Positions 6,236 to 21,973 of a stretch of DNA of 64,000 nucleotides are shown here, one piece after another (the stretch's first letter is position 1; each line of letters begins with the position of its first letter). The notes under the pieces are model-generated. The model was not told the DNA's origin, did no database searches, and saw only the letters and a list, made by a program, of their open reading frames with translations. This stretch comes from Nitrospirales bacterium. Lineage in GTDB: Bacteria; Nitrospirota; Nitrospiria; Nitrospirales; UBA8639. A program made the position numbers and the translations under genes. The DNA lies in contig OY729426.1 in NCBI GenBank assembly GCA_963422365.1, positions 1,088,001 to 1,152,000 of the forward strand, given 5' to 3'.

Positions 6236-6753
6236 TGCCCTTGACCTTGATCGGGGGATGGCGCGGTTACACGGGATTACAAAAGGGCCGCGACACGGTT
6301 CTACATCAATGGAATCAACAAATTCCCGACTCCCCATGCAGCCCCGCTCACCCGAATTGTGGTTCGTGTTCCCAGGAGCATCTTCCACACCTAGTGATGG
6401 AATGGTAAATCTTAGTTCCGTCGACGAGCAAATTTCATGCGTCGGCGAAGTTTTTTATGCTTATGCTTCCGCATTTTTTTTTGTCGTTTTTTGACTACAC
6501 TCGCCATTCACACTCCTTTTTTTCCTCACGGGGAAGGTGGTTGCGCTTCTGGGGTCTTACTGAAAGCAAAGAGAGATGTGCTCCAAGGTGCGGAGTGGTT
6601 TCACAGGTAACATAGCGTTTCAGGAAGTGTCAAGAAAGGAACGGGGTCTGTCTCCATGAGTCGTCAGGTTGCCTTGGAAGTAGCAGGATCCTCCATGGGA
6701 GTCAGGGCACGTTCCCTCTCCCGTTGTACGGACGGAACAGGTAACACAGGTTT

Positions 6754-7543
6754 GTCTTAATCCCTTCTTCATCAGGTCTTCACTTCAGACCTTGCGCCCC
6801 CGCCCTACGGGCGGGGGGGCGATAAATGCTGATTAATATTCCGCCTCACGCGCGGCGATCATCTCGCGGGCCTCATCCCATTTGGGTTGCCGGCGCGTGG
6901 CGGCACCCACGCGTTGGATGATGGCCTCGGCATTGCGTTTGCGTTCCAGAGTCCCCCGGCCGCCGCCGGCGATCTCAAGCGCAAACTCGCTGAGCGAGCG
7001 CCCCATCCGAGCGCTATGGCACCCCACGCAGGCGGTGACCAGATTGCTCGGATGAGTATTGCCGTCACCGCCGGTCACATCGTCGATGAGCAGGCCGGCA
7101 CACTCCTCATCCTCGATCACCTGCCCGCAGTATACGCAGGCCAGGTGATCCCGCAGGTAGATGCTAGTTATGGTGGTTATATCCATTGTTTCCCCCTTGC
7201 GCCCCCCGCCCTACGGTCTTAATCCCTTCTTCATCAGGTCTTCACTTCAGACGAAGAATAAAAATCGGGAACGGGCTCTCATCGACCGTCTTAATCCCTT
7301 CTTCATCAGGTCTTCACTTCAGACCCGGATCGGCCGTTTAATGATTAGCATAAAATTAAGAAGGTCTTAATCCCTTCTTCATCAGGTCTTCACTTCAGAC
7401 TCCGCCGAGAATCAGAGAGGGACGTGCACGGGATCGTCTTAATCCCTTCTTCATCAGGTCTTCACTTCAGACAATGGAGATTAAAACTTATGTGAGTACC
7501 GGGAGAGTCTTAATCCCTTCTTCATCAGGTCTTCACTTCAGAC
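6754..7543 (-). CRISPR. CRISPR array: 6 identical 37-bp repeats and 5 spacers (425, 35, 39, 35, 34 bp in + order)
   Basis: GTCTTAATCCCTTCTTCATCAGGTCTTCACTTCAGAC at 6754, 7216, 7288, 7364, 7436 and 7507. The minus-strand form ends ATTAAGAC (type III-like 8-nt 5' tag) and the leader side abuts cas2. Confidence 0.98.
6833..7186 (-). CDS. 117-aa HNH/McrA-fold Zn-binding protein encoded inside the 425-bp CRISPR spacer
   Basis: IYLRD..CVYCG...IDD....G...SNLVTACVGCH matches the HNH pattern RD..C.YCG...DH..P..GG...NLV.AC..CN. RBS AAGGGGGA lies 4 nt before the ATG; TAA stop inside the spacer. Confidence 0.8.
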   Translation of the reverse strand: MDITTITSIYLRDHLACVYCGQVIEDEECAGLLIDDVTGGDGNTHPSNLVTACVGCHSARMGRSLSEFALEIAGGGRGTLERKRNAEAIIQRVGAATRRQPKWDEAREMIAAREAEY

Positions 7544-7719
7544 TCCTTTCTCGAAAAAACCCTTTTCTTAGAATGGCTTGCAAAGGGGGTTGCAGGAAAT
7601 GTCCCAGGCTGCAAGAGGAACGTCACTATCATAACGCCGTGCATGGGGGACTCGATCAAACGAAGAAAAACGAAGTATACGATTTTTTTAATCAATCGTC
7701 AGCCTCATCCCCTAGGGAT
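7544..7719 (-). promoter_or_regulatory. CRISPR leader
   Basis: Non-coding, A/T-tract-rich segment between the terminal repeat and the cas2 stop; imperfect inverted repeat AACCCTTT..AAAGGGGGTT near the first repeat. Confidence 0.7.
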
Positions 7720-8043
7720 TCACGGTCGGTCGGGGGGATCTTGGATCAGTGCCAATCGACTCTGTCCGTTTTCGATCAGTAACGTGTTTGTGGCAAAAAA
7801 CTGTTGTCCCAATAGGGTCACGTCACCGGTGGCGGGCAACGGGTACGCCCGAACGTCATCGTGTTTTGGATCAATCATTGCCTCAAGCTCAGACAGGATG
7901 TGATTGAGTCGGGAGTGACTCAGCGGCGCGGCGAAGACGGAATACTGTACCCGACAAGCGTGCTGACACAGATATCTGGCGACCCGTCCCAGGCGCTTGG
8001 GGTCTGCAATATCGTACGCAACAAGATACAATCGCTGACTCAT
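7720..8043 (-). CDS. cas2: CRISPR-associated Cas2 (copy B)
   Basis: LYLVAYDIADPKRL...RVQYSVF...IDPKHDDVRAY. Confidence 0.93.
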   Translation of the reverse strand: MSQRLYLVAYDIADPKRLGRVARYLCQHACRVQYSVFAAPLSHSRLNHILSELEAMIDPKHDDVRAYPLPATGDVTLLGQQFFATNTLLIENGQSRLALIQDPPDRP

Positions 8044-8804
8044 ACGAAATCCACCAAAAAGCCTTGCAGACGGCTGGTCAGCCTGCGCGCAATTCGCGCC
8101 AACCGGTGACTGTGTTGCTCAAATAATGCCACAACGTCACGATCATTGATACGCTGGTGTGCCGGCCGCCGGCTTAACCATTCACTCAGGGGCAGTTGCA
8201 AGGACAGGGATAATAAATCAGCAGAATCAAGGGGTATGTTCAGCCGTTGCTCAAGATAGAGACTGCGTTCGGCACTCAGCCCTGCTTGCTGTAAGACCTC
8301 GTTGGCGAGATTGCTGCACAACCCATGCAAGCGTCGTTGCAGATCACTTCGCTGGCGCGTGTCAACGAATTGTTCCATATGGCGATCCAGCCTGGCACGG
8401 ATTTGCTTGAGCGAGAACTGGTCCGATTGCACGTTCAATGTGCGGCACAGTGCTCGTCGAGCACGGCTGGCAGCCGCAGCGACCCAGATCTGATAACGGT
8501 CAGGCCAGTCGGGGCGGTCCAGGAGATCACGCAGGTGGGTAAACAAGTCATCGTTCGCTCGGCTACGACCAAACACATGCGCCCTGATTGCGCCGTCATG
8601 CCGTAAGAAGGTGACGGTAATGCCACGCTCTGCGCAAGCAAGCAGAGTGGATGTCGCGCATTCCGGTGACCCGGAAATGACAAGACGGGACATACGGCGC
8701 AAGGGGACAAGCACGGCAGCCTGCCCTGATGCCGCGATACTCAAGGATGGGCCATCTAGGTTGATCTGCATCCCTTTCCGACCATGAATGTAACAGGGCT
8801 TCAT
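8040..8804 (-). CDS. Degenerate, probably catalytically dead Cas1 paralog
   Basis: The N-terminal region parallels the adjacent Cas1 (LDGPSL..VPLRRMSRLVI..LLACAERGITVTFL). The C-terminal half keeps AGL and FEQ but lacks the EG, GFYH and DxxE motifs. Confidence 0.75.
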   Translation of the reverse strand: MKPCYIHGRKGMQINLDGPSLSIAASGQAAVLVPLRRMSRLVISGSPECATSTLLACAERGITVTFLRHDGAIRAHVFGRSRANDDLFTHLRDLLDRPDWPDRYQIWVAAAASRARRALCRTLNVQSDQFSLKQIRARLDRHMEQFVDTRQRSDLQRRLHGLCSNLANEVLQQAGLSAERSLYLEQRLNIPLDSADLLSLSLQLPLSEWLSRRPAHQRINDRDVVALFEQHSHRLARIARRLTSRLQGFLVDFV

Positions 8805-9766
8805 GCGTCATCTGCCTCGGGTAACTCAGGGGCAGCATCCAGCAGGGCCCGTGCGATCTGATAGCTGCGAAGACGCAGATACCGTCGCCATGGCCCGGCA
8901 CATGCGTCATACTGTTCAAAAAACGTCCGGCGGCCGTTTTTGTTGAGCAGGCAGCTTTGTCCTTCGCGGCTGAAGTGGCCCGTGCTCAACAGACGTTGGC
9001 GAAATACATGCCAGACCCAGCGGTCGACCCGCGGCCGCAATGGTTCAATCACGTCACAGGCCAAAGATTGGCGGCCATACGCAGGCTCATGGTAAAACCC
9101 CAGCAGCGGATCGAGTCCTGCTCCATGACAGGCACGTACCGCTTCATGGTGTAGCAGGGTATACACCAGCGACAGGCAGGCGTTCACCGGGTCGCGCGGG
9201 GGACGACGATTCCGCCCGGTGAAGTCCAGACTGCCGGCAAACAGGTGCTGAAACCCGGCAAAGTACATGGCCGCTGCCGACCCCTCCAGACCACGCAACA
9301 CGTCCATGCTCACGGCCTTGTGCACGGAGGGCACGAGAGAAGCCAGCCCTGTTGTCGCGGTACTGAGCGGGTGACGAAGATCGAGTCGGCGTAACAGCGC
9401 GGACTGTAATAGTTTGTGCTGCGCGGTGATTTTCGCCTGCACCAGTTGCCGGCTCCAGTTCAGGCGTCGTTCGGTATCATGCCAGAGCTGATACTGGGCA
9501 AGCCGGCGTCGTGCATCATTATGACCCGGACACAAGAGTTGCAGACGTCGCTGACCTGCGCGCCCGTGCATGATGGTGACGCCTATGCCGCGCTGCCCCA
9601 GTGTTCCCAGCAGACGGCTGTCCAACGTCACCTGACTGTGGATGACGACCCGATCCAGCATTGTGAGCGGCACACTCTGTGGTCCTGCATCGGGTCGCCG
9701 GACCAGCAGTCGTTTCCCGTCCAGTTCGAGTTGCAAGTCTTTGCGATCAATGCATAACGTCAGCAT
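8801..9766 (-). CDS. cas1: CRISPR-associated integrase Cas1
   Basis: LRGLEGSAAAMYF, RNRRPPRDPVNACLS, GLDPLLGFYH, SLACDVIEPLRP; catalytic E/H/D motifs present. Confidence 0.96.
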   Translation of the reverse strand: MLTLCIDRKDLQLELDGKRLLVRRPDAGPQSVPLTMLDRVVIHSQVTLDSRLLGTLGQRGIGVTIMHGRAGQRRLQLLCPGHNDARRRLAQYQLWHDTERRLNWSRQLVQAKITAQHKLLQSALLRRLDLRHPLSTATTGLASLVPSVHKAVSMDVLRGLEGSAAAMYFAGFQHLFAGSLDFTGRNRRPPRDPVNACLSLVYTLLHHEAVRACHGAGLDPLLGFYHEPAYGRQSLACDVIEPLRPRVDRWVWHVFRQRLLSTGHFSREGQSCLLNKNGRRTFFEQYDACAGPWRRYLRLRSYQIARALLDAAPELPEADDA

Positions 9767-9771
9767 CGCGT

Positions 9772-10053
9772 TCAGCCGATGTAACAGTAGGATTGATCTT
9801 CGGGTGCGACACCCTTGCCCAAGGTCTTGATGTCATCCGCAGAGGCCAGCGGCAGGAGCAGAAACCGATCCTCATCCGGATCGATGATCCTCCCGATGGT
9901 CTCGACCAACTCCCGCCGCTCGGTGCCGGTCAGAAAACACTCGAAGACGGATTTCTGGCGGCCACAGGCAAACCCTTTCAATACATACAGGGCAGCCCGC
10001 AGGCGGCTGGTGTTGCTGATGTCATAGGCGGCAAGATAGAGTCGGCGTTTCAT
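9772..10053 (-). CDS. cas2: CRISPR-associated Cas2 (copy A)
   Basis: LYLAAYDIS..RL...QKSVFEC...IDPDEDR. Confidence 0.93.
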   Translation of the reverse strand: MKRRLYLAAYDISNTSRLRAALYVLKGFACGRQKSVFECFLTGTERRELVETIGRIIDPDEDRFLLLPLASADDIKTLGKGVAPEDQSYCYIG

Positions 10054-13305: not shown

Positions 13306-14739
13306 TCAATTTTCTCCTTTATAAATTTGCAAGGCCTTTTTAATCGACTTGCCTGGTGGTGGGTTATCCCACCACCCCTTTTCCTGCCAGCGTGCCTGAA
13401 TGTCTGCTAACGCAGTCTGTTTTAGGTCACCGTCTTCAATTGCTTGCCAGGATTTTGCTAGTGGTTGGCCACGCAGGGCTTCATCAGCTGAAGCATGGTG
13501 CTGTTCTTGAATGGCCGCAATTTGTTCTTCCACCCATGGGCTGCGCACGACGTCTGTCGAACTGGTTTTTTGACTTGCGGCACGTATTTCTGTCTCATCC
13601 GACCAGGGTGACAATCTTATCCAGCCCAGTGGTAAACGGGGATTGCCTTGTACGGCTAATCTCCTGGTTTTTGGAAAATTTTCAGATTTTCCGAGACGAT
13701 AAAGTCCACGCATTTTTTCCTGCGTTTCTGCATCTTGCCAACCGCCCGTCATTCCCCGCCAACCACTGCCCCAAGCCAATCTTAGATAAGCGGCATTCTC
13801 TGTTTGTTGAATGGTTTCCCGTAATGTTTCGCATTGTTCGACGATTGTTTGCTGCTTGTAACGCTGAAAAAATTTTATTTCCTGTTCGAGGATATGTCGT
13901 GCGTGACCGTTGAGCTTTGCACAGAGTCCGGCAAAATCTGCCGGTAATAACTCAAGACTGTGCTGAGGCGCGTACCAACGATTTGGGTCTTTCAGCAGGA
14001 ATCGATCCCACTGCAGTGACATCGCTGCGATTGCGGTAGGTGCTAGAGTCTCGGCGTAAATACCGGTTGCGTCCTGCCACCTGTTCTCGTTTTTCCTGTT
14101 AGACATATTGCGCCATTTCGCGAACTGTCTGTCATTGGATCTGGTGATATTTAGCCAACGAACGTCGGCAAGACACAGATCACTGGTTTGGAAGTTAGCA
14201 TCACCTACGTGCAGAGCACGCAGCAGATCTTTGTTTGGATCAGAACCAAAGACATATTTTGTGATAGCAGTTGCTGCCATCTTAGGAGAACAGGTAGGCT
14301 TCTTCTGCGTATTATCCCACCGTGGAAGACGGCTTGCTATCCCACTCGGTCTGCTGTGCAGCCATGCGGCTAACAGTGCGGTGCGGATAGCGCCTTTTAT
14401 TGAACTGCCCGGCAGGTAGGGATGCAACATGGCATCTTTGATAAACTCCCTGAATTTCTCCGGCAGGGCCATTTTCCCCTGCAAATAGGGAAGTGGGTAG
14501 CCGTAGTATGTGCCTGCAAGCCTGACAGAATCACTCAGTTTGGGATTTGCTTGCAGTAGAGTATCAAGTGCTGTATGACCCGATGCAATGGCATTAAAAG
14601 TTCGGTTCTGATCGACAACAAAAACCTGTCCTCGTTGCTCCACGTAATCAAGTTCACGATATAATTCTTCCCCTGAGCCAACGTGTACCGGTGTCAATAT
14701 TTCAACGGCAAGTTGAATCGTTTCCGTTTGTCCTTTCAT
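13306..14739 (-). CDS. csm5: Type III-A Csm5 RAMP
   Basis: LTPVHVGSG, PYLPGSSIKGAIRT, LRLAWGSGW, PLGW; follows csm4. Confidence 0.92.
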   Translation of the reverse strand: MKGQTETIQLAVEILTPVHVGSGEELYRELDYVEQRGQVFVVDQNRTFNAIASGHTALDTLLQANPKLSDSVRLAGTYYGYPLPYLQGKMALPEKFREFIKDAMLHPYLPGSSIKGAIRTALLAAWLHSRPSGIASRLPRWDNTQKKPTCSPKMAATAITKYVFGSDPNKDLLRALHVGDANFQTSDLCLADVRWLNITRSNDRQFAKWRNMSNRKNENRWQDATGIYAETLAPTAIAAMSLQWDRFLLKDPNRWYAPQHSLELLPADFAGLCAKLNGHARHILEQEIKFFQRYKQQTIVEQCETLRETIQQTENAAYLRLAWGSGWRGMTGGWQDAETQEKMRGLYRLGKSENFPKTRRLAVQGNPRLPLGWIRLSPWSDETEIRAASQKTSSTDVVRSPWVEEQIAAIQEQHHASADEALRGQPLAKSWQAIEDGDLKQTALADIQARWQEKGWWDNPPPGKSIKKALQIYKGEN

Positions 14740-15728
14740 GAAACAACTCCCGTTCCTATGAAAAAGCCTCTGCCGTCCCGATAGATAGGATGAGGGGATG
14801 CTTTCCCTTCCGGCGTATTGGTAGGTGTAACCTCAACCACCCGGCCGGTGAGGGACCGACGGAACTGACTGCCTTCGGTAAACATGCGCAATCTCAAACG
14901 TCGCAAACCATGATGTGCAATCCATCCTCCTCGACTCATCAGGTTGTAGCTCGATCCTTCAAGCCAAGTCCCTGAAAAATCTGTTGGGGCAGGGCTGACG
15001 AGTGATAACGCAGTAAAAATGCCGTTATCAGTGGTCTTCAACTCAGGAAAATTGTCTGCTTTTTGCCATTCGAAAAAGCCGTTGCCATTGCTTCGGTCTG
15101 CGCCGATGCCACTGTCCCCCAATAAACTGAGCGCAGCCTCGAATCCTTTTCTATCATTATCGTTGCCAAAATGTGCCAGGAAGTATAAGCCCGATTCCGA
15201 GTGGAAGTGTACGCGCCCGAAGTTGAATAATTGCCCCTCCAGCGGGGCACCACTGGCGCGGTCAGTCGCTAGCCTTGGGCGTTCCTCCTGCGCCCATAGC
15301 GTTAATTTTTCTACCTGTTTGCAGATCGCCTTGGGCAAGGCCAGTGTCGATTGAACAATATCGATAGCATCAAGGTTTAGCTGCCAGCCATTTGTCGCGG
15401 TATCGTGCCACAATTCTGGCGCTATCCATTGAATCTTTTTAAGCTTCTTATAGCTGCGCAGGTCTTTATCGGGTAAGTCCGGTGCAGTGCTTCCAATAGG
15501 GCGAGGCAAAAAGTAAGTGTTCTGAAAATAGGGGAATGCCGAACTGAGTAGGAACGGTGGTGCCGCAGCCCGTTCAGTCGCAACATTCGGTTCCAACAGC
15601 GCCCACGCTGATAAAATCGCGGCGCTCAACGTATCCGAGTGAATAAATATCTCGGATTCATCATAGAAATTGTTGCCGCGATTATCGACGTGAAAAGGCG
15701 CTGTAAACTTGAGTTTGTAGCAGTCCAT
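14736..15728 (-). CDS. csm4: Type III-A Csm4 RAMP
   Basis: HSDTLSAA, LSSAFPY, LGDSGIGADRSNGNG, MFTEGS, HPIYRDG. Confidence 0.93.
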   Translation of the reverse strand: MDCYKLKFTAPFHVDNRGNNFYDESEIFIHSDTLSAAILSAWALLEPNVATERAAAPPFLLSSAFPYFQNTYFLPRPIGSTAPDLPDKDLRSYKKLKKIQWIAPELWHDTATNGWQLNLDAIDIVQSTLALPKAICKQVEKLTLWAQEERPRLATDRASGAPLEGQLFNFGRVHFHSESGLYFLAHFGNDNDRKGFEAALSLLGDSGIGADRSNGNGFFEWQKADNFPELKTTDNGIFTALSLVSPAPTDFSGTWLEGSSYNLMSRGGWIAHHGLRRLRLRMFTEGSQFRRSLTGRVVEVTPTNTPEGKASPHPIYRDGRGFFIGTGVVS

Positions 15729-15739
15729 AACAGTTTATT

Positions 15740-16522
15740 TCAGGCAACAGCTTCGGCTTCTGTAGCAGACGGCTTGAATTCATCTGGTATCTTGTAATCC
15801 GACAAATCCGCTTCCTTGTTGCCTGATTTGTATTGTTCCGCAGTCCGTTGGGTCAGTGAAGTCCTAGAAAATTTGACCTGCCCATAACCGCGCGAACCGT
15901 TACCACCGAGTGTATCCGCTTGAACCAGACGCAATCCTTCAAATAGCAGGTTGAGGAAATGCTTCTGATCATCGTCTTCAAGCAAAGTAAGAATGAATTC
16001 GAAATCAAATTCCGCTCCCGCGGGCACACGTTCGATCTGGCGTGGATTTGCGGCGGAGGTAATGCGATCAATCCAGACCTCGGTTTTGACTTCGGTCATC
16101 GGCATATCGGCATTGGGCGCTGAAAGAAGCTTAACTCGACTCGCTTTTGTCAACAGCGCATCACGAACAATCAAACGTGTTGGTTCTATTGAGTCTTCAG
16201 CCGCAACGCCAAATAGTTTGCCTAGCGACGTATCCGACTTCTTCCCCGCCAAGGCTTCCTTCTTCTCACGTATAGAGAAGCCCCCTTCGACGTTCTGGTT
16301 ATTTTCCTCATTTCCCCGAACCCGTTCGAGTAATGCCCTCATTTTGCCCCGTAATGACGAGCCTGGAATATACGGATCATTGGTTAGCGGGTTCCGCACA
16401 ACGACTGAATCGGCGCCACCGATAGCCATGCCGACGGAATTACCTCCGATATGCAACCCGGTTAAAGCTGTCAAATGACCTCGAACAAAAATTTTACTGC
16501 TTACTTTTTTGATGTCAGTCAT
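15740..16522 (-). CDS. csm3: Type III-A Csm3 backbone RNase
   Basis: TGLHIGG, IGGAD (catalytic Asp), PYIPGSSLRGKMR, KTEVWIDR..ANPRQIERVP, LGGNGSRGYG. Confidence 0.96.
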   Translation of the reverse strand: MTDIKKVSSKIFVRGHLTALTGLHIGGNSVGMAIGGADSVVVRNPLTNDPYIPGSSLRGKMRALLERVRGNEENNQNVEGGFSIREKKEALAGKKSDTSLGKLFGVAAEDSIEPTRLIVRDALLTKASRVKLLSAPNADMPMTEVKTEVWIDRITSAANPRQIERVPAGAEFDFEFILTLLEDDDQKHFLNLLFEGLRLVQADTLGGNGSRGYGQVKFSRTSLTQRTAEQYKSGNKEADLSDYKIPDEFKPSATEAEAVA

Positions 16523-16524
16523 GG

Positions 16525-16926
16525 CTATTTTCCTCCTGCTGCTTTATGGTAAGCGACTATTGCTTCAAAAAATTGGCAAAATCGCTGAAACGATGCTTCA
16601 TCATTGACAGCGTCAATCGCACTATCCATCACCTTTTTCAGCTCTTTCAAACCGTCACCATGCCGGCCTGCTGCATAAGCCAACCTGGTTTTGAGAAGAA
16701 GCACTTCGCGCCGTGTGCGACTTTGCCAGCCAGACATCTCCAGCTTTTTCATATTACCGTATGCATTGCGAATTTGGCTGGTAGTAACTTTTTTAGTTTG
16801 CAGAATTTCTCCAAACCTTTCTGCAAATTGAACCATTTGTTTAGCAGTATCGTCTTGAGCAATGTAGCTTTTAATCTCTTCAGGTGTTGGCATTGGGGTT
16901 TCACCGCTTGATCTATTTGTTGGCAT
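16525..16926 (-). CDS. csm2: Type III-A small subunit Csm2
   Basis: TTSQIRN, LLKTRLAYAAGR, FFEAIVAYHK; start may be 16893. Confidence 0.93.
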   Translation of the reverse strand: MPTNRSSGETPMPTPEEIKSYIAQDDTAKQMVQFAERFGEILQTKKVTTSQIRNAYGNMKKLEMSGWQSRTRREVLLLKTRLAYAAGRHGDGLKELKKVMDSAIDAVNDEASFQRFCQFFEAIVAYHKAAGGK

Positions 16927-19498
16927 CAGCAGATCTCCTCGTTAAAAATTCGGCCCACCGGGTGGGCAGTTCCAACCATTCAATCGCTGGTCGGATTGAT
17001 TCAGTCCGGCTTTCAGTAATAGTTGCGATCAAATTGTTCAAATCTTCCTCAATAGCAGGGGTGCGACGTGCCACGCGTTTCAGGTTGTAAACCAGACGCC
17101 AGCGCCATTGTTGCCAATGTAACAGTTCACGTATTTCATCTTTCTGTAATTGTCGTTTATCACTGAGCCGTCGGAACTCTTCAACTGCAAGCACGACCGA
17201 GCGTAATCTGTCGAGTATTGCCCGATTCCCGGTTTTTTCAATAATGGTTTCGATTTGCTTTTTTAACGTCAGAGCACGAGGATATTCTTCCCAGCCGATA
17301 GTTATGCCAAGCAGCGAGACAGCATCTTTTTCACGCTTGTTACGTTTCAGTACTTTTGCGCTTGACTCAGCTTCACTAGCCAAATCGGCGGCCCGTGATA
17401 TAGGGTATTTGCCGTCAACCATGATAAGGCCACCAGAAAGTGTAAACACAGGATTGCCTGCGCAATAGCGTTGAAATTCTTGCCGAATTTTATCAGCGAC
17501 ATCCGGCAGCTCATCCCAGGAACCGATGATAAACACATCGTCGCCCCCTGAATAAATAACTTGGCTACGCTTATAAGTTTTGAGCAGCTCCATAAGGTGA
17601 CCGGCAAAAAACAGGTGTAGCTGACGGGATAGAGTAGCCACCCTGGATAATGATCCCATTTCTTCTTCTGTGCCTGTTGCGCTTGGGAATTTGAGTCCAC
17701 GAATGAATATCTCACCCAAGTTATCGACATCCAGACGTAATACACCCATACGTCGAATACCCTTAGCGTTTTTATCAAAATCATCAAATTCCCATGGGGC
17801 TGCTTCTTCTTTGTCGCGGTCCCACCTACCAAGTAACCGAAAACCACTCGCATAACCATGCTGGTTGAATTTCGGATCAGTAATTTGATTGATACGTTCA
17901 TAATAGCTGGCAGCCAGCGAGCGTAACTCACTGAATTCAGGTAAACCATTTTGTTTTGAAACATGAATATGCCAATCCGTACCAGGTAAAGAAATACAAG
18001 CTAATTCCTTTTCCTTGATACTGTCCAAGTCACTTTTCCAAACCCAGAAAAAGGCTTCTGCGTCAGTCAGGCTTTGCCCCAACTTTTGTAAATTATTACA
18101 TTGCTTACAGATTGCTCCATCATCCGTCTGGCTGATTTCGGCATCTTTATCATCCCGGCTACAAACCCTGCACGCGGAGCCGGGAGCAAGTTCTTGCGGC
18201 GTAAAAAAACTATGGTCTTTTTCCAGTAATGGGCGGAAACGCTGCTGCCGGTCACGCATCAGGTTATCATTCGCAGCTTTCCAGCGTTTGCCCATGTTGC
18301 CACTGGCGAAATCTCCACCACATACCGGTGCGATACCGGTGCCGAGAAAAATGTCTCCTTGAAATTCTTTAATCAGAGCCTCATTTATTGCCGCCATCTC
18401 GTCTTTCAATGATTGCTCCAGACAGTCAGGTATGAGCAGGTAAAATTTGCCGCCAGAAGAATAAATGCGGGCAGTGGGGTAGAGTTTAAGTTTCCGTAAT
18501 AAATGTTCCGCAACACCGTCACATAACAGTTGTATATAAAGTGATCGTCCACGTAGACCCTTGGCAGCACCTTTACGGGTAATCTTGTAGATGAAATTCT
18601 GGATACCGGAAAAATCACCACAGACCAGACGCCATTTGTGGGTGGTTTTATCATTAAATGTATCAGGCTGATCAAGTGTGTCATGATGCTGATGATGTAG
18701 AAATAAACCTTCTGCAATAGCTGCCGTAACACGCAAATGGTCATATAACGATATGTCCGGGTGGATGACGTTCGTTGCCGCTGGAACGGTAGTCAAGAAA
18801 CGTTCCATCTGTGCCAGTAGCGTCATCATGAATGAACGCAAAGCGGCCGTTGTGAGTCGGTCATATTCGGGCACCTTTTCCATTGCATTCAGCAAACCAT
18901 CAGCCAGTTTCTGATAATCGTCCGATAAGTCCGTTGGACTGATCCAGACTGGATTTTCTCCAGCCTCTATCTTGGTCATAGGCGGATCAAATGCAGTTGT
19001 CGGCAATGAAAATATATCCCGGCCAGTTGTTAAGGGGTTAAGGCCTGCCCGAAACTCGGTAGGTTTGGAAACACCATCTAAATTGATGCGTTCAAGCATG
19101 GGTTCCAGAAGAGTACGGCGATGAATATTTCGTTGATAAAAATTTCCCTGTTCACGTTCGGCACTGGCGAAATGATCAGCTGCCTGAATAAGACGTTCCA
19201 TGTCCGTAGAGGCCACATGATGATGTGCGGCCATATTGATCCAGTTGGCTGCTGCTTGCGGATCATGTTGTTCTGATGGCTGTAAAATGGGAACGATACG
19301 ACAGAGCTCTTCACAAAAACGACGGGTATGTAATACGTGCAGGTGACTCCAGTAGCCACCACTCCGATGCCAGGGACAGTCCTGTTGCCTTTGGTCCTCA
19401 TTAGCACGATATTCACCAAGCCGATTTGCTCGCTCGAAAAATTTGCCTATGTCGTGCAATAAAGCGCCAAATACAATGTGGTCATGCGGTTCCATCAT
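16913..19498 (-). CDS. cas10: Cas10/Csm1 with intact HD nuclease and GGDD cyclase motifs
   Basis: LLHDIGKF, DISLYDH, GDFSGIQNFIY, LRGRS, Zn finger CRVC..CKQC, DVDNLG, YSGGDD. Start placed at 19498 because a -10 box lies at 19532-19537. Confidence 0.97.
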   Translation of the reverse strand: MMEPHDHIVFGALLHDIGKFFERANRLGEYRANEDQRQQDCPWHRSGGYWSHLHVLHTRRFCEELCRIVPILQPSEQHDPQAAANWINMAAHHHVASTDMERLIQAADHFASAEREQGNFYQRNIHRRTLLEPMLERINLDGVSKPTEFRAGLNPLTTGRDIFSLPTTAFDPPMTKIEAGENPVWISPTDLSDDYQKLADGLLNAMEKVPEYDRLTTAALRSFMMTLLAQMERFLTTVPAATNVIHPDISLYDHLRVTAAIAEGLFLHHQHHDTLDQPDTFNDKTTHKWRLVCGDFSGIQNFIYKITRKGAAKGLRGRSLYIQLLCDGVAEHLLRKLKLYPTARIYSSGGKFYLLIPDCLEQSLKDEMAAINEALIKEFQGDIFLGTGIAPVCGGDFASGNMGKRWKAANDNLMRDRQQRFRPLLEKDHSFFTPQELAPGSACRVCSRDDKDAEISQTDDGAICKQCNNLQKLGQSLTDAEAFFWVWKSDLDSIKEKELACISLPGTDWHIHVSKQNGLPEFSELRSLAASYYERINQITDPKFNQHGYASGFRLLGRWDRDKEEAAPWEFDDFDKNAKGIRRMGVLRLDVDNLGEIFIRGLKFPSATGTEEEMGSLSRVATLSRQLHLFFAGHLMELLKTYKRSQVIYSGGDDVFIIGSWDELPDVADKIRQEFQRYCAGNPVFTLSGGLIMVDGKYPISRAADLASEAESSAKVLKRNKREKDAVSLLGITIGWEEYPRALTLKKQIETIIEKTGNRAILDRLRSVVLAVEEFRRLSDKRQLQKDEIRELLHWQQWRWRLVYNLKRVARRTPAIEEDLNNLIATITESRTESIRPAIEWLELPTRWAEFLTRRSADANK

Positions 19499-19531
19499 TA
19501 GCGTAATAACCTTCTCTTGATCATCGTCTTG

Positions 19532-19579
19532 AGTGTAATCGATTTCCAGATGCAATTGTTCGACGGCAAGCTTGCCGTC
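19532..19579 (-). promoter_or_regulatory. Palindromic operator plus -10 box upstream of cas10
   Basis: Perfect 18-bp palindrome GACGGCAAGCTTGCCGTC 19562-19579; TACACT on the minus strand 27 nt from the 12-bp core. Confidence 0.7.
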
Positions 19580-19583
19580 TCCG

Positions 19584-20726
19584 TCATGTTTCCAGAAACC
19601 GTACCTGTTCTTTTTTCAGCGTTAACCCTTTCAACCGGCACCGCGACTCTGGAATCACGCCGATAGGACTGATCAGATAAGGGGTGGCCGGTTCCTTGCC
19701 CAGGCTTCTTTTAAGAAGCCCATTGATTTTGCTCGTTTTCTGATCCATAAAATCCTGGTCCATGCCACGTCTTAAACTGTCACGTGCATTCTCATAATCT
19801 GCGCTGTACTCACCGACAATGTGGACATATTCTTCGAGGTATTCTTCGCTGACGTTTTCCTGGGTCCAGTGTATGCCCGGAGTGCCTGCCAGTAGACGAC
19901 GGGCAAACCAGGCGTAAAAGGCGAAAAGACTGGGAGTAAGGGGCACAGGGTGGTCGCCGCAGTGAATGGTCTTGTTGTTGCTGTCGAGGATCAGTTTCGG
20001 CGGATTAACGTTGCGTTGTGTTCGGGAGACGGTTTCCGAATAACTCATGCTTTCGCCCAGTATGCTGCTATCCAGGTGCCCGCGCAGTCGCACAAAGGGG
20101 ATGTCTGCCAGCGTGATCTCGGCGTCACGGGTATGGATGGGGCGTTTGTTGTGGTCTCGCAGGACTTTCGGTTTGGGGGGCGGGTAGTAAAATTGTGGGT
20201 GTGACTCAAACGGTGGTGAGACCAGTACGTGGGACAGGCGATCCTGCTCGCGCCCGAACAGACTCATGGCGTAGCCCAGGTAGAACCCCATGGTCTTGCG
20301 GCCACCGGCGATAGAGGCGTGGATGATGGTCTGTGGATCAGCAGTCAGGCGTCGCACGATAGCGGTGATGGTATCGGCAGCGGTTTCATTGTCGGCAAGA
20401 CTGCGAATGTCGTCCAGTGGTTTCTTGTCATCCGCAGGGATCTGATGGATGGTCTCTCCGTCGAATCGGATGCCACCTGGATCGATGTCAAGATCAGCGC
20501 AGAGCCGATAAAAATGCTGTTCTTCGGGGTCGCTTTCGAGGAGCGTCAGGCGTACCCTGTCGGCTCCTTCGGCGGTGGTGATGATATGAATGGCCGTCGG
20601 GATGAATGGATCGTCTCGCGTGGCCAGTGCATAGAAGGTTTCGGTAATCACCTGTGGTGATAAACCGGCGGCACACAGCAAGATGCGTTGTGAGCAACCG
20701 ATGGGTGAGCGTGCCGCGTTTGTCAC
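19584..20726 (-). CDS. NE0113-family CARF protein with C-terminal HTH-like extension
   Basis: GLSPQVITET, DDIR, SIAGGRKTMG, SLFGREQDRLSHVLV, FESHPQFYYP. The track ORF starts at 20867; the true start is probably the GTG near 20726. Confidence 0.85.
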   Translation of the reverse strand: MTNAARSPIGCSQRILLCAAGLSPQVITETFYALATRDDPFIPTAIHIITTAEGADRVRLTLLESDPEEQHFYRLCADLDIDPGGIRFDGETIHQIPADDKKPLDDIRSLADNETAADTITAIVRRLTADPQTIIHASIAGGRKTMGFYLGYAMSLFGREQDRLSHVLVSPPFESHPQFYYPPPKPKVLRDHNKRPIHTRDAEITLADIPFVRLRGHLDSSILGESMSYSETVSRTQRNVNPPKLILDSNNKTIHCGDHPVPLTPSLFAFYAWFARRLLAGTPGIHWTQENVSEEYLEEYVHIVGEYSADYENARDSLRRGMDQDFMDQKTSKINGLLKRSLGKEPATPYLISPIGVIPESRCRLKGLTLKKEQVRFLET

Positions 20727-20873
20727 TGGATACGCCTGTCTCGGATTTGATCCAGAATATCTTTCGGTACAAGGCTGGATACGGGATGACGGCTTTTCAG
20801 TGCAGGCCTCGTTCCGGTGTCGGTGGATTGCATGACGGTTTCCATGAACGATGGTCGTTCTAGGCAAGCCCTG

Positions 20874-21854
20874 TTAATCGACGCTGATGATTGCATACTT
20901 GCCCAGCCCCATGCTGGTGTTTTTGCCCGCGTGAGTCCATTGGCCGAGCCAGATGTAGTGCCAGAAAGGCACGAGTGCGTTGCTTCCGGAACAGCCGCCG
21001 GCGCTGACCTCGAACGTCACCGTGCCCAACAGTCCGCCAAGCTGCATCAGGCTGTCCTGACGGCTGGAATAGCGGGTCCAGTCATGCCAGCGCAGTTCAT
21101 GACGTGCCACGGGTATCGCTTCAGCTGCCCGGGTCAGCGCGGCAAAGTCGGTTTCCAGCGGCGTGTCGGTGTGAAACGCGGTGAGCAGGGAGAGACGCCG
21201 CAATAACGTCGAAAAGAGGGTCTTGAACGTCAACCCGTTCGGCGTGATAAGGTGATCGCGGGCTTTCACGCGCAAGGGCGTGAGGAACTCGATTTTCAAT
21301 TGAGCCGGACAATCCGGCGGATTGCGACACTCCGGAGGTTGCGGCTGGAGATTTCCTCCTGGCCGGTAGATTGACAACCATGCATCCTGCACGTGCTGTT
21401 GAACCTCAAGTAACGTGAGTGTTCCGCGTTGTTTGCCAATACCTCGTTGGGCGGCTTGGTCAAGCGCGTGAATGATATAGGGCAGATGACGATTCCCACG
21501 TCCGAACAGCGTCATCTCCAAGCTGTGCTCGGTCTCCGCCGCCAGGGGACCGTGCATCGTGTCGCCCGGATTCAGGACGAACGGGTGTGGCGCGGCGTTG
21601 TATTTGCGCAGTTTGCCGACGCCTGGATCCGGCGGTGTCTCAAAAATATAGGGGTAGATACAACTGCGATACAACAGGCAGGGTTCACAGTGCGGTTCGC
21701 GGGTCACGCAGACCAGTCTTTTGAGGCTGTTGCCGAAGGCGCCGCGCCAAGCGGAACCGGAATAGTCCGGCAGGCGCATGGAGCCGGCTGTTCGAAACCT
21801 GAACCGATAGTGCGCCAAGGGTAATGATGGTTCGCTGAATGATGCTGTATTCAT
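20874..21854 (-). CDS. cas6: CRISPR pre-crRNA processing endoribonuclease Cas6
   Basis: GSAWRGAFG, Cys cluster C..C.L...C.Y, PHPF, TPLR, DWTRYSSRQ, G-rich loop HAGKNTSMGLG. Confidence 0.92.
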   Translation of the reverse strand: MNTASFSEPSLPLAHYRFRFRTAGSMRLPDYSGSAWRGAFGNSLKRLVCVTREPHCEPCLLYRSCIYPYIFETPPDPGVGKLRKYNAAPHPFVLNPGDTMHGPLAAETEHSLEMTLFGRGNRHLPYIIHALDQAAQRGIGKQRGTLTLLEVQQHVQDAWLSIYRPGGNLQPQPPECRNPPDCPAQLKIEFLTPLRVKARDHLITPNGLTFKTLFSTLLRRLSLLTAFHTDTPLETDFAALTRAAEAIPVARHELRWHDWTRYSSRQDSLMQLGGLLGTVTFEVSAGGCSGSNALVPFWHYIWLGQWTHAGKNTSMGLGKYAIISVD

Positions 21855-21973
21855 AGAAGTTTCCCGTTTGTTGCAACAACGTAACGGGTTACCCAAAGTT
21901 GTTCAACGCGAAAATTCTATATGTTACGATAGGTTATGGAGATAATGTGTTGAACCCCTTGCTTCAGGCGTTT

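Follow-up and report, generated by a model that had tools for sequence, protein, structure and literature searches.

The stretch of DNA analysed here (hereafter, the window) is 64,000 nt long and comes from the genome of a Nitrospirales bacterium (GCA_963422365.1, contig OY729426.1, positions 1,088,001–1,152,000 of the forward strand). It contains a CRISPR array at 6754–7543 with six identical 37-nt repeats, which start at 6754, 7216, 7288, 7364, 7436, and 7507; the spacers between them are, in order, 425, 35, 39, 35, and 34 nt in length. The cas genes are located to the right of the array and are all on the minus strand; therefore, the 425-bp slot is leader-distal. The features of the locus are as follows:

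6754–6790, minus strand: leader-distal CRISPR repeat, a perfect 37-nt copy (direction assigned from the cas genes, the leader side, and the spacer strand bias)
6791–7215, minus strand: oversized spacer of 425 bp, present in a single copy in the genome
6791–6809, no strand: left copy of the terminal direct repeat, 19 nt, with five C residues (C5), abutting the CRISPR repeat exactly
6795–6821, no strand: GC-rich hairpin with a 3-nt loop and without a U-tract, ending on the transcript strand 4 nt before the CRISPR repeat
6833–7186, minus strand: gene of 117 codons belonging to a phage HNH family; the four Cys are present, catalytic His36 replaced by Asp, and Asn57 by His
7187–7198, minus strand: purine-rich ribosome-binding site (RBS) upstream of the ATG, recognised from the sequence
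7196–7215, no strand: right copy of the terminal direct repeat, 20 nt, with six C residues (C6), abutting the CRISPR repeat exactly and ending one base beyond the hairpin loop
7216–7543, minus strand: five further repeats and four ordinary spacers (35, 39, 35, and 34 nt)
7544–7719, minus strand: putative leader region
7720–10053, minus strand: adaptation module (cas2 at 9772–10053, cas1 at 8801–9766, a short cas1-like gene at 8040–8804, and a second cas2 at 7720–8043)
13306–21896, minus strand: type III-A effector block (cas6, an NE0113-family gene, cas10/csm1, and csm2–csm5)

The leader region contains one weak sigma-70-like site (7702–7674), whose score is within chance. The short cas1-like gene of the adaptation module encodes a divergent protein of 254 aa, which aligns to the full Cas1 over the first ~65 residues only. 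The pair of the full cas1 and the 254-aa cas1-like gene recurs in other taxa carrying the same repeat family. The short Cas1 was considered as the cause of long inserts and rejected, since it is also present in taxa without them.

Like an ordinary spacer, the 425-bp slot has two identical repeats at its sides and lies near cas10/csm, cas6, cas1, and cas2. It differs from an ordinary spacer in length (425 nt versus 34–39 nt in the rest of the array) and in guide direction, its ORF being sense to the array transcript. It is foreign gene-bearing DNA with perfect repeats on either side, as in pseudo-spacers of the SiL-E1 type, and the insert works like a pseudo-spacer. Its GC content is 64%, compared with 53% for the genome. 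On the transcript strand, the insert reads as half a hairpin, the RBS, an ATG located 29 nt after the repeat, 117 codons, a stop, 11 nt, the full hairpin, 4 nt, and the next repeat.

The assembly of this region was checked in short-read contigs of four of the 16 listed runs. A 485-bp contig of run X1 (6761–7245, depth 192) and a 483-bp contig of run X4 (6762–7244) each span repeat, spacer, and repeat with no other letters and no gaps; the study label is the same for both, and the source sample may be among them. In X5 and X6, which belong to two further studies, only inner pieces of the insert are present. Fusion of the array to a phage contig might be suspected, given that the genome comes from a mixed sample and that repeats confuse assembly graphs. 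However, since the X1 and X4 contigs are unbranched, cross both junctions without differences, and have a depth like that of the neighbouring spacer, the insert is not an assembly artefact, the chance of which we regard as practically negligible. For the same reason, the difference between the C5 and C6 copies is real, and it could have arisen by later slippage. No collapsed or circular joint was listed in the contigs of the four runs, contigs being prone to lose rare variants. The depth of the X1 contigs over 6400–7800 is 192 for the giant spacer, 189 for the next spacer, 301 and 271 for the flanks, and 116 for the leader-proximal spacer; this unevenness hints at mixed array versions, contig depth not being equal to the share of cells. 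No RNA dataset was listed among those containing the insert, which is neutral with regard to expression.

The first-pass annotation had described the slot as bounded by a 19/20-bp direct repeat flush with the CRISPR repeats, and this description was confirmed; the two copies differ by one C, and the junction ambiguity between the insert and the repeats is 1 nt. The left copy does continue into a full hairpin (6795–6821; −16.4 kcal/mol as DNA, z −3.7, matched in none of 200 shuffles), which is the strongest of the 78 windows folded within the spacer. The right copy is indeed cut at the loop: it stops one base past it, forms no hairpin (z −0.9), and is adjoined by the RBS. The terminal-repeat motif has only two sites in the 2.5-Mb genome, both at the ends of the insert. 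Against the 19 nt observed, the chance maximum was 9 nt for 3000 shuffled sequences and 12 nt for 3000 425-mers drawn at random from the genome. A fragment that runs from one copy of a repeated unit into the next ends on the repeat by necessity; what is non-random is the location of both insert ends within the unit. An Rfam search gave no matches, and a sequence scan of 6791–7215 found no promoter-like or terminator-like site. A host REP-like element as the origin of the unit was rejected because the shared start is only 8 nt long and there is no second genomic copy. Within the HNH gene, an imperfect palindrome of 36 nt (7115–7150) overlies the first Cys pair.

The 117-aa protein has 356 relatives at E ≤ 0.001, the best of which are 45–50% identical to it. 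It matches a PHROG HNH family at 4.5e-8, while no Pfam match was found for the protein itself; every atlas match with an assigned family is HNH, and relatives are encoded by 400 of the 600 viral candidate stretches. The structure model has a pLDDT of 95, and its top fold matches are the HNH domains of Cas9 (probability 1.0, E about 0.005). The catalytic site was compared with those of 138 relatives shorter than 200 aa, 12 of the 150 listed proteins being left out as having at least 200 aa. The conserved Asp is followed by His in 137 of the 138 relatives and by Asp in the insert protein; at the Asn57 position, 136 relatives have Asn and the insert protein has His. The four Cys, Asp35, and Asn48 are retained, and the N-terminus is about 14 residues shorter than in the relatives. 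Thus, judged against HNH endonucleases (phage RLAIYLRD-type relatives), the protein has the fold with four Cys and lacks the catalytic His; from these residues, it is predicted to be nuclease-dead. The gene is likely phage-derived. In 37 genomes of the genus, no close relative of the gene was found, each giving a weak generic HNH match, and none of 18 candidates contained a relative of the protein besides itself.

The repeat family was scanned in 97 loci, many of which are from one fragmented genome. The scan yielded 1378 distinct intervals between repeats: 1361 of them are 28–47 nt in length, one is 3 nt (two repeats of L196), none is 4–27 nt, and 16 exceed 55 nt. It had been expected that terminal direct repeats would be a general trait of oversized spacers. 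This expectation failed: none of the 16 other long intervals carries one, although the test recovers that of the insert, and the 16 include two gene-sized intervals between perfect repeats in sister genomes (G052 and G044). Hence, a terminal repeat is not needed for long inserts elsewhere. Five of the 16 are broken repeats or assembly gaps. G052 has four more long intervals beyond the 16, which were checked by visual inspection only. Interval 21 of L175 (106 bp), which is among the five, was rejected as a circle inserted in a 34-nt spacer, as the final 15 nt of the repeat of that array are present in it; its spacer is partly duplicated around the broken repeat.

The sister genomes overlapped by some of these loci are titled Nitrospirales. 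The comparison took arrays with three or more repeats and 1.5 kb of sequence visible beyond the distal end, which left 34 of 72 arrays after the removal of seven overlapping views. Intervals of at least 120 bp are present in four of the five sister arrays versus three of the 29 others (Fisher p 0.003, a value overstated by the non-independence of kin). In the three non-sister arrays, the long interval is a cas gene block between two arrays, a 558-aa ORF that we take to be transposase-like, and a duplicated leader block. At L242:3900–6620, a duplicated leader-plus-repeat block surrounds an ORF6N gene, which begins 47 nt after the repeat, and a ParB/DNA-methylase gene, both of which are sense. 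The long inserts of the sisters are located at the leader-distal end: L148:11096–12102 (G052), L249:7660–8732 (G044), L150:11318–12191 (G023), and L149:2699–5973 (G048). Two of them, of 1007 bp in G052 and 1073 bp in G044, are gene-sized, lie between perfect repeats, and have no terminal repeat. The two other arrays of the source genome, with 25 and 99 intervals, contain no long insert.

The orientation of the inserts was compared with that of ordinary spacers. Among 1297 family spacers, the RBS–ATG signal assigns 66 as antisense to mRNA versus 11 as sense. Every credible gene in a long interval has the sense orientation relative to the array transcript, which represents about six independent events; what counts as credible here is the analyst's judgement, and the cas operon is on the same strand as the sense inserts. 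In G044, the sense gene is a 204-aa ORF beginning 26 nt after the repeat. In G052, there are three chained ORFs, a CARF gene, an RmuC gene, and a 64-aa ORF with an RBS; G048 and G023 contain RmuC and SNase-family genes. Some of the sister inserts are common by descent. The APE2256-family CARF gene of G052 (L148:12103–13215) begins 2 nt past a perfect repeat, and the RmuC gene of G048 begins 9 nt past a degenerate repeat (L149, near 5974). One may speculate that the purine run of the repeat serves as the RBS of the CARF and RmuC genes and is lost on Cas6 cleavage, which would make it a translational switch. A single degenerate orphan repeat occupies the same chromosomal site in six sisters (L252 and L254–L258, from G022, G002, G008, G007, G053, and G003), and the closest relative, G001, has no adaptation module at that site.

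The last ORF of the 1007-bp insert of G052 (L148:11863–12139) has the homologues P0153 and P0154, which are 80% and 74% identical to it. Both end in a peptide equal to the repeat read in another frame to its stop, and therefore long retention beside the repeat is suggested: P0153 and P0154 would also abut a repeat, and the cassette is perhaps old and conserved. For the G044 insert protein, no relative but itself was found; the 129-aa protein of G052 has no atlas match, and the searches for the origin of the sister inserts gave one weak viral match. A search for the G044 insert in the 37 genus genomes gave no match outside its own genome. In the same 37 genomes, the matches listed for the G052 insert outside its own genome are confined to the CRISPR repeat and a short palindromic element. 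In L150 (G023) and L149 (G048), two leader-distal spacers of ordinary length are host palindromic repeat elements, presumably REP-like; as spacers, they fit hairpin-biased type III-A acquisition. Arrays in this lineage may occasionally capture and express whole genes.

The first-pass annotation had proposed that the donor was a tandem array of hairpin, RBS, and gene cassettes. This layout is plausible, with indirect support from viral relatives of the gene; the donor itself was not found. Of 80 viral loci with an HNH relative, 54 could be scored (22 had no callable start and four were at an edge). A repeated intergenic element adjoins the HNH relative in 18 of the 54, compared with none of 54 for the in-gene control window, and it is present on both sides of the relative in two. 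In one viral locus (L071), a stop, a GC hairpin with a 3-nt loop, an RBS, and an ATG follow one another in the layout of the insert. Searches of viral contigs for the donor by protein and by five DNA patterns were blank, and phage and plasmid records contained no donor. A pattern scan of metagenomes gave 12 matches, all of them single copies that lack C-run, hairpin, gene, and CRISPR repeat alike; the pattern with two mismatches gave eight isolated matches in 300 other genomes of the order, which is the control level. The HNH profile revealed no donor in 400 other genomes at E ≤ 1e-22. Capture from RNA by an RT–Cas1 is unlikely because the source genome (G000, 98.6% complete) has no reverse transcriptase, as judged by the lack of a PF00078 match. 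Integration of a prophage of the PhiAP1.1 type was also rejected: the insert has a lone 117-aa HNH ORF and no integrase, and its overlap with the repeat is 1 nt.

We tentatively propose, without rating it as outright probable, that the insert originates from a phage region with repeated hairpin-plus-RBS units between small genes, that a 425-bp piece of this region was inserted whole by the host Cas1–Cas2, and that the terminal repeat is a relic of the donor. The donor fragment would have been broken or trimmed at two adjacent hairpins, with 3' ends 4 nt beyond the first stem and at the tip of the second one. Each 3' end would then have been joined to one edge of a repeat, which was duplicated as in normal adaptation, the 400-bp loop bypassing the ruler. 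With both ends in neighbouring hairpin units, the overlap of two unit copies would appear as a terminal repeat. Possibly, the insert was kept because it faces the array promoter. Type III Cas6 cleavage leaves an 8-nt tag on the released RNA, and Cas6 cuts would free an mRNA consisting of this tag, the RBS, and the ORF. A trimmed guide from the insert would be sense and so would not target the donor mRNA, and a disabled nuclease would be harmless and hence tolerated.

Several observations are consistent with this origin: the junctions are flush on both sides, the one-C difference between the copies is what two donor copies could show, and a full-length Cas1 adjoins the array. Given that the inserts of G052 and G044 have no terminal repeat, one repeat-independent route would cover all three. 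In the type III-A adaptation of S. thermophilus, hairpin DNA is preferred (PMC8860593) and early phage genes are favoured (PMC13575424). Against this origin, the two-cas1 module is present in other taxa whose arrays have no such inserts, and 99% of the new type III-A spacers described for S. thermophilus are 32–42 bp (PMC8860593). No biochemical precedent for Cas1–Cas2 integration of a 400-bp fragment was found in the literature consulted. When five long inserts were folded, a hairpin was found at the 3' end of two (the present one, rank 1 of 78, and, arguably, the 412-bp one of G052, rank 12 of 75); hairpin-defined ends as a general rule for long inserts are not supported by these five.

Other explanations give the terminal repeat an active role. 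A frozen Cas1–Cas2 cointegrate is possible, if rather doubtful: a 406-bp one-gene circle with nicks in its two strands 20 bp apart, or a linear fragment with annealed terminal repeats, would have been integrated via its two 3' ends, the 20-bp core would have been duplicated by fill-in, and the product would never have been resolved. The order of CRISPR repeat, duplicated segment, body, duplicated segment, and CRISPR repeat is the pre-resolution product of the replicative route proposed by Ma et al. 2021 (PMC8390005), in which a duplicated protospacer surrounds donor DNA between two repeats. With one copy taken away, what is left is a tidy cassette with a full hairpin, an RBS, and an ORF, and T4-type phages are described as yielding ~400-bp one-gene circles via recombination of repeated regulatory units (PMC2839356). 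In the insert, a duplicated donor segment is indeed flush with both repeats; however, on the route as proposed, the duplicate should be spacer-sized (34–39 nt), whereas here it is 19 nt on one side and 20 nt on the other. The first-pass suggestion that annealed terminal repeats mimic a prespacer holds for the topology, but the 3'-to-3' distance would be 19–20 nt, against a family ruler of 28–47 nt. As none of the 1378 intervals is 4–27 nt, a 20-bp core, whether as a prespacer or as a prior spacer, needs a length never seen in the family. In addition, the circle form predicts identical copies, yet these are C5 and C6; recombination would be expected to resolve a cointegrate, yet the contig listings of the four runs, which lose rare variants, contain no collapsed joint; and the 16 other long intervals are devoid of terminal repeats. 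The terminal repeat is more likely a donor relic from successive hairpin–RBS units than an integration handle.

Homologous recombination with earlier spacers, either by a double crossover between the donor and two ordinary sense spacers derived from adjacent hairpins, with loss of the repeat that separated them, or by entry of a circle into an abnormally short spacer, is likewise a doubtful but serious candidate. A double crossover would give flush junctions without the ruler problem, hairpins are described as hot spots of type III-A acquisition (PMC8860593), sense spacers would spare the mRNA of the donor, and recombination has been named as plausible for the Sulfolobus pseudo-spacer (PMC3718332). 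It would, however, need two collinear sense spacers, a class making up only 11 of the 77 spacers that can be oriented, and the same kind of event would be required again in G052 and G044. The insert is unmatched among the 1297 family spacers (best matches 13–15 nt) and in the other two arrays of the genome. The single crossover, which the first-pass annotation had offered as the recombination of a ~405-bp circle into a short spacer, is disfavoured: it requires a spacer of 19–20 nt, within the length range that is empty among the 1378 intervals, and the contigs of the four runs list no collapsed joint. It is quite improbable that the gene came to lie beside the end of the array by another route and only afterwards received a copied repeat on its far side, through ectopic integration or gene conversion. 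Long inserts do cluster leader-distally, in the company of degenerate repeats, palindromic elements, and genes of the cas type (CARF, for example), but such copying leaves unexplained why the two ends of the insert fall in one donor unit and adjoin the repeats exactly; the outer repeat is close to the position of the sisters' last or orphan repeat, and the gene is without a close relative in the 37 genus genomes. A broader and unlikely interpretation regards the type III-A array of this Nitrospirales genus as an integron-like platform for gene capture: the adaptation module, with its full and short Cas1 and two Cas2, would place whole cassettes or cassette circles between repeats, oriented towards the array promoter, and Cas6 would process them into single-gene mRNAs; the insert would be a natural cointegrate that was not resolved, with a phage nuclease disarmed after capture.

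Gene-bearing inserts between CRISPR repeats are known. The pseudo-spacer SiL-E1 of Sulfolobus islandicus LAL14/1 is described as about 2 kb of gene-bearing mobile DNA between repeats (PMC3718332), and locus F of S. solfataricus contains an 899-bp pNOB8-like insert between CRISPR repeats (PMC4390879). The accounts of these cases offer two mechanisms without choosing between them, namely faulty processing of the protospacer and recombination with spacers. The present insert resembles them in being gene-bearing mobile DNA with identical repeats on both sides; it differs from the Sulfolobus cases, as described, in that it is found in a bacterial type III-A array, carries a phage-type gene in a full RBS–ORF cassette, has a terminal direct repeat within a hairpin unit, is sense, and has recurrent counterparts in sister genomes. 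In the PeSL cassettes of T4-type phages (PMC2839356), as in the insert, a stem-loop/RBS unit lies by a small gene, and recombination there gives one-gene mini-circles of ~400 bp. On the two sides of the ORF, the unit of the insert can be followed only up to the insert's ends; unlike PeSLs, which are described as holding a strong (sigma-70) promoter and a terminator, the unit of the insert shows neither. Type III-A adaptation in S. thermophilus (PMC8860593, PMC13575424) involves the same subtype, and both ends of the insert are in a hairpin near a gene start, but the new spacers reported there are 32–42 bp (PMC8860593). The prophage PhiAP1.1 is reported to integrate into type II-A repeats (bioRxiv 10.1101/2020.10.09.333658), which is likewise phage DNA between CRISPR repeats; in contrast to this whole prophage, the insert is 425 bp in length, has one ORF and no integrase, and its donor ends are dissimilar to the repeat. 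In the open-access literature, no report was found of oversized spacers with terminal redundancy, nor of a lineage-wide sense bias of gene cassettes within arrays of type III-A.

Ever since the Sulfolobus cases, it has been a question how gene-sized DNA comes to lie between CRISPR repeats, and the trace left at the ends of the insert makes the mechanism testable with the adjacent adaptation module. If Cas1–Cas2 does place 0.4–1 kb of DNA at a fixed site, it would be a useful tool. Should the terminal repeat be no more than a donor relic, the case would still provide a lineage with oversized spacers frequent enough for study. Capture and expression of the sense inserts in the sisters, if real, would mean that CRISPR arrays contribute to gene gain in addition to immune memory.
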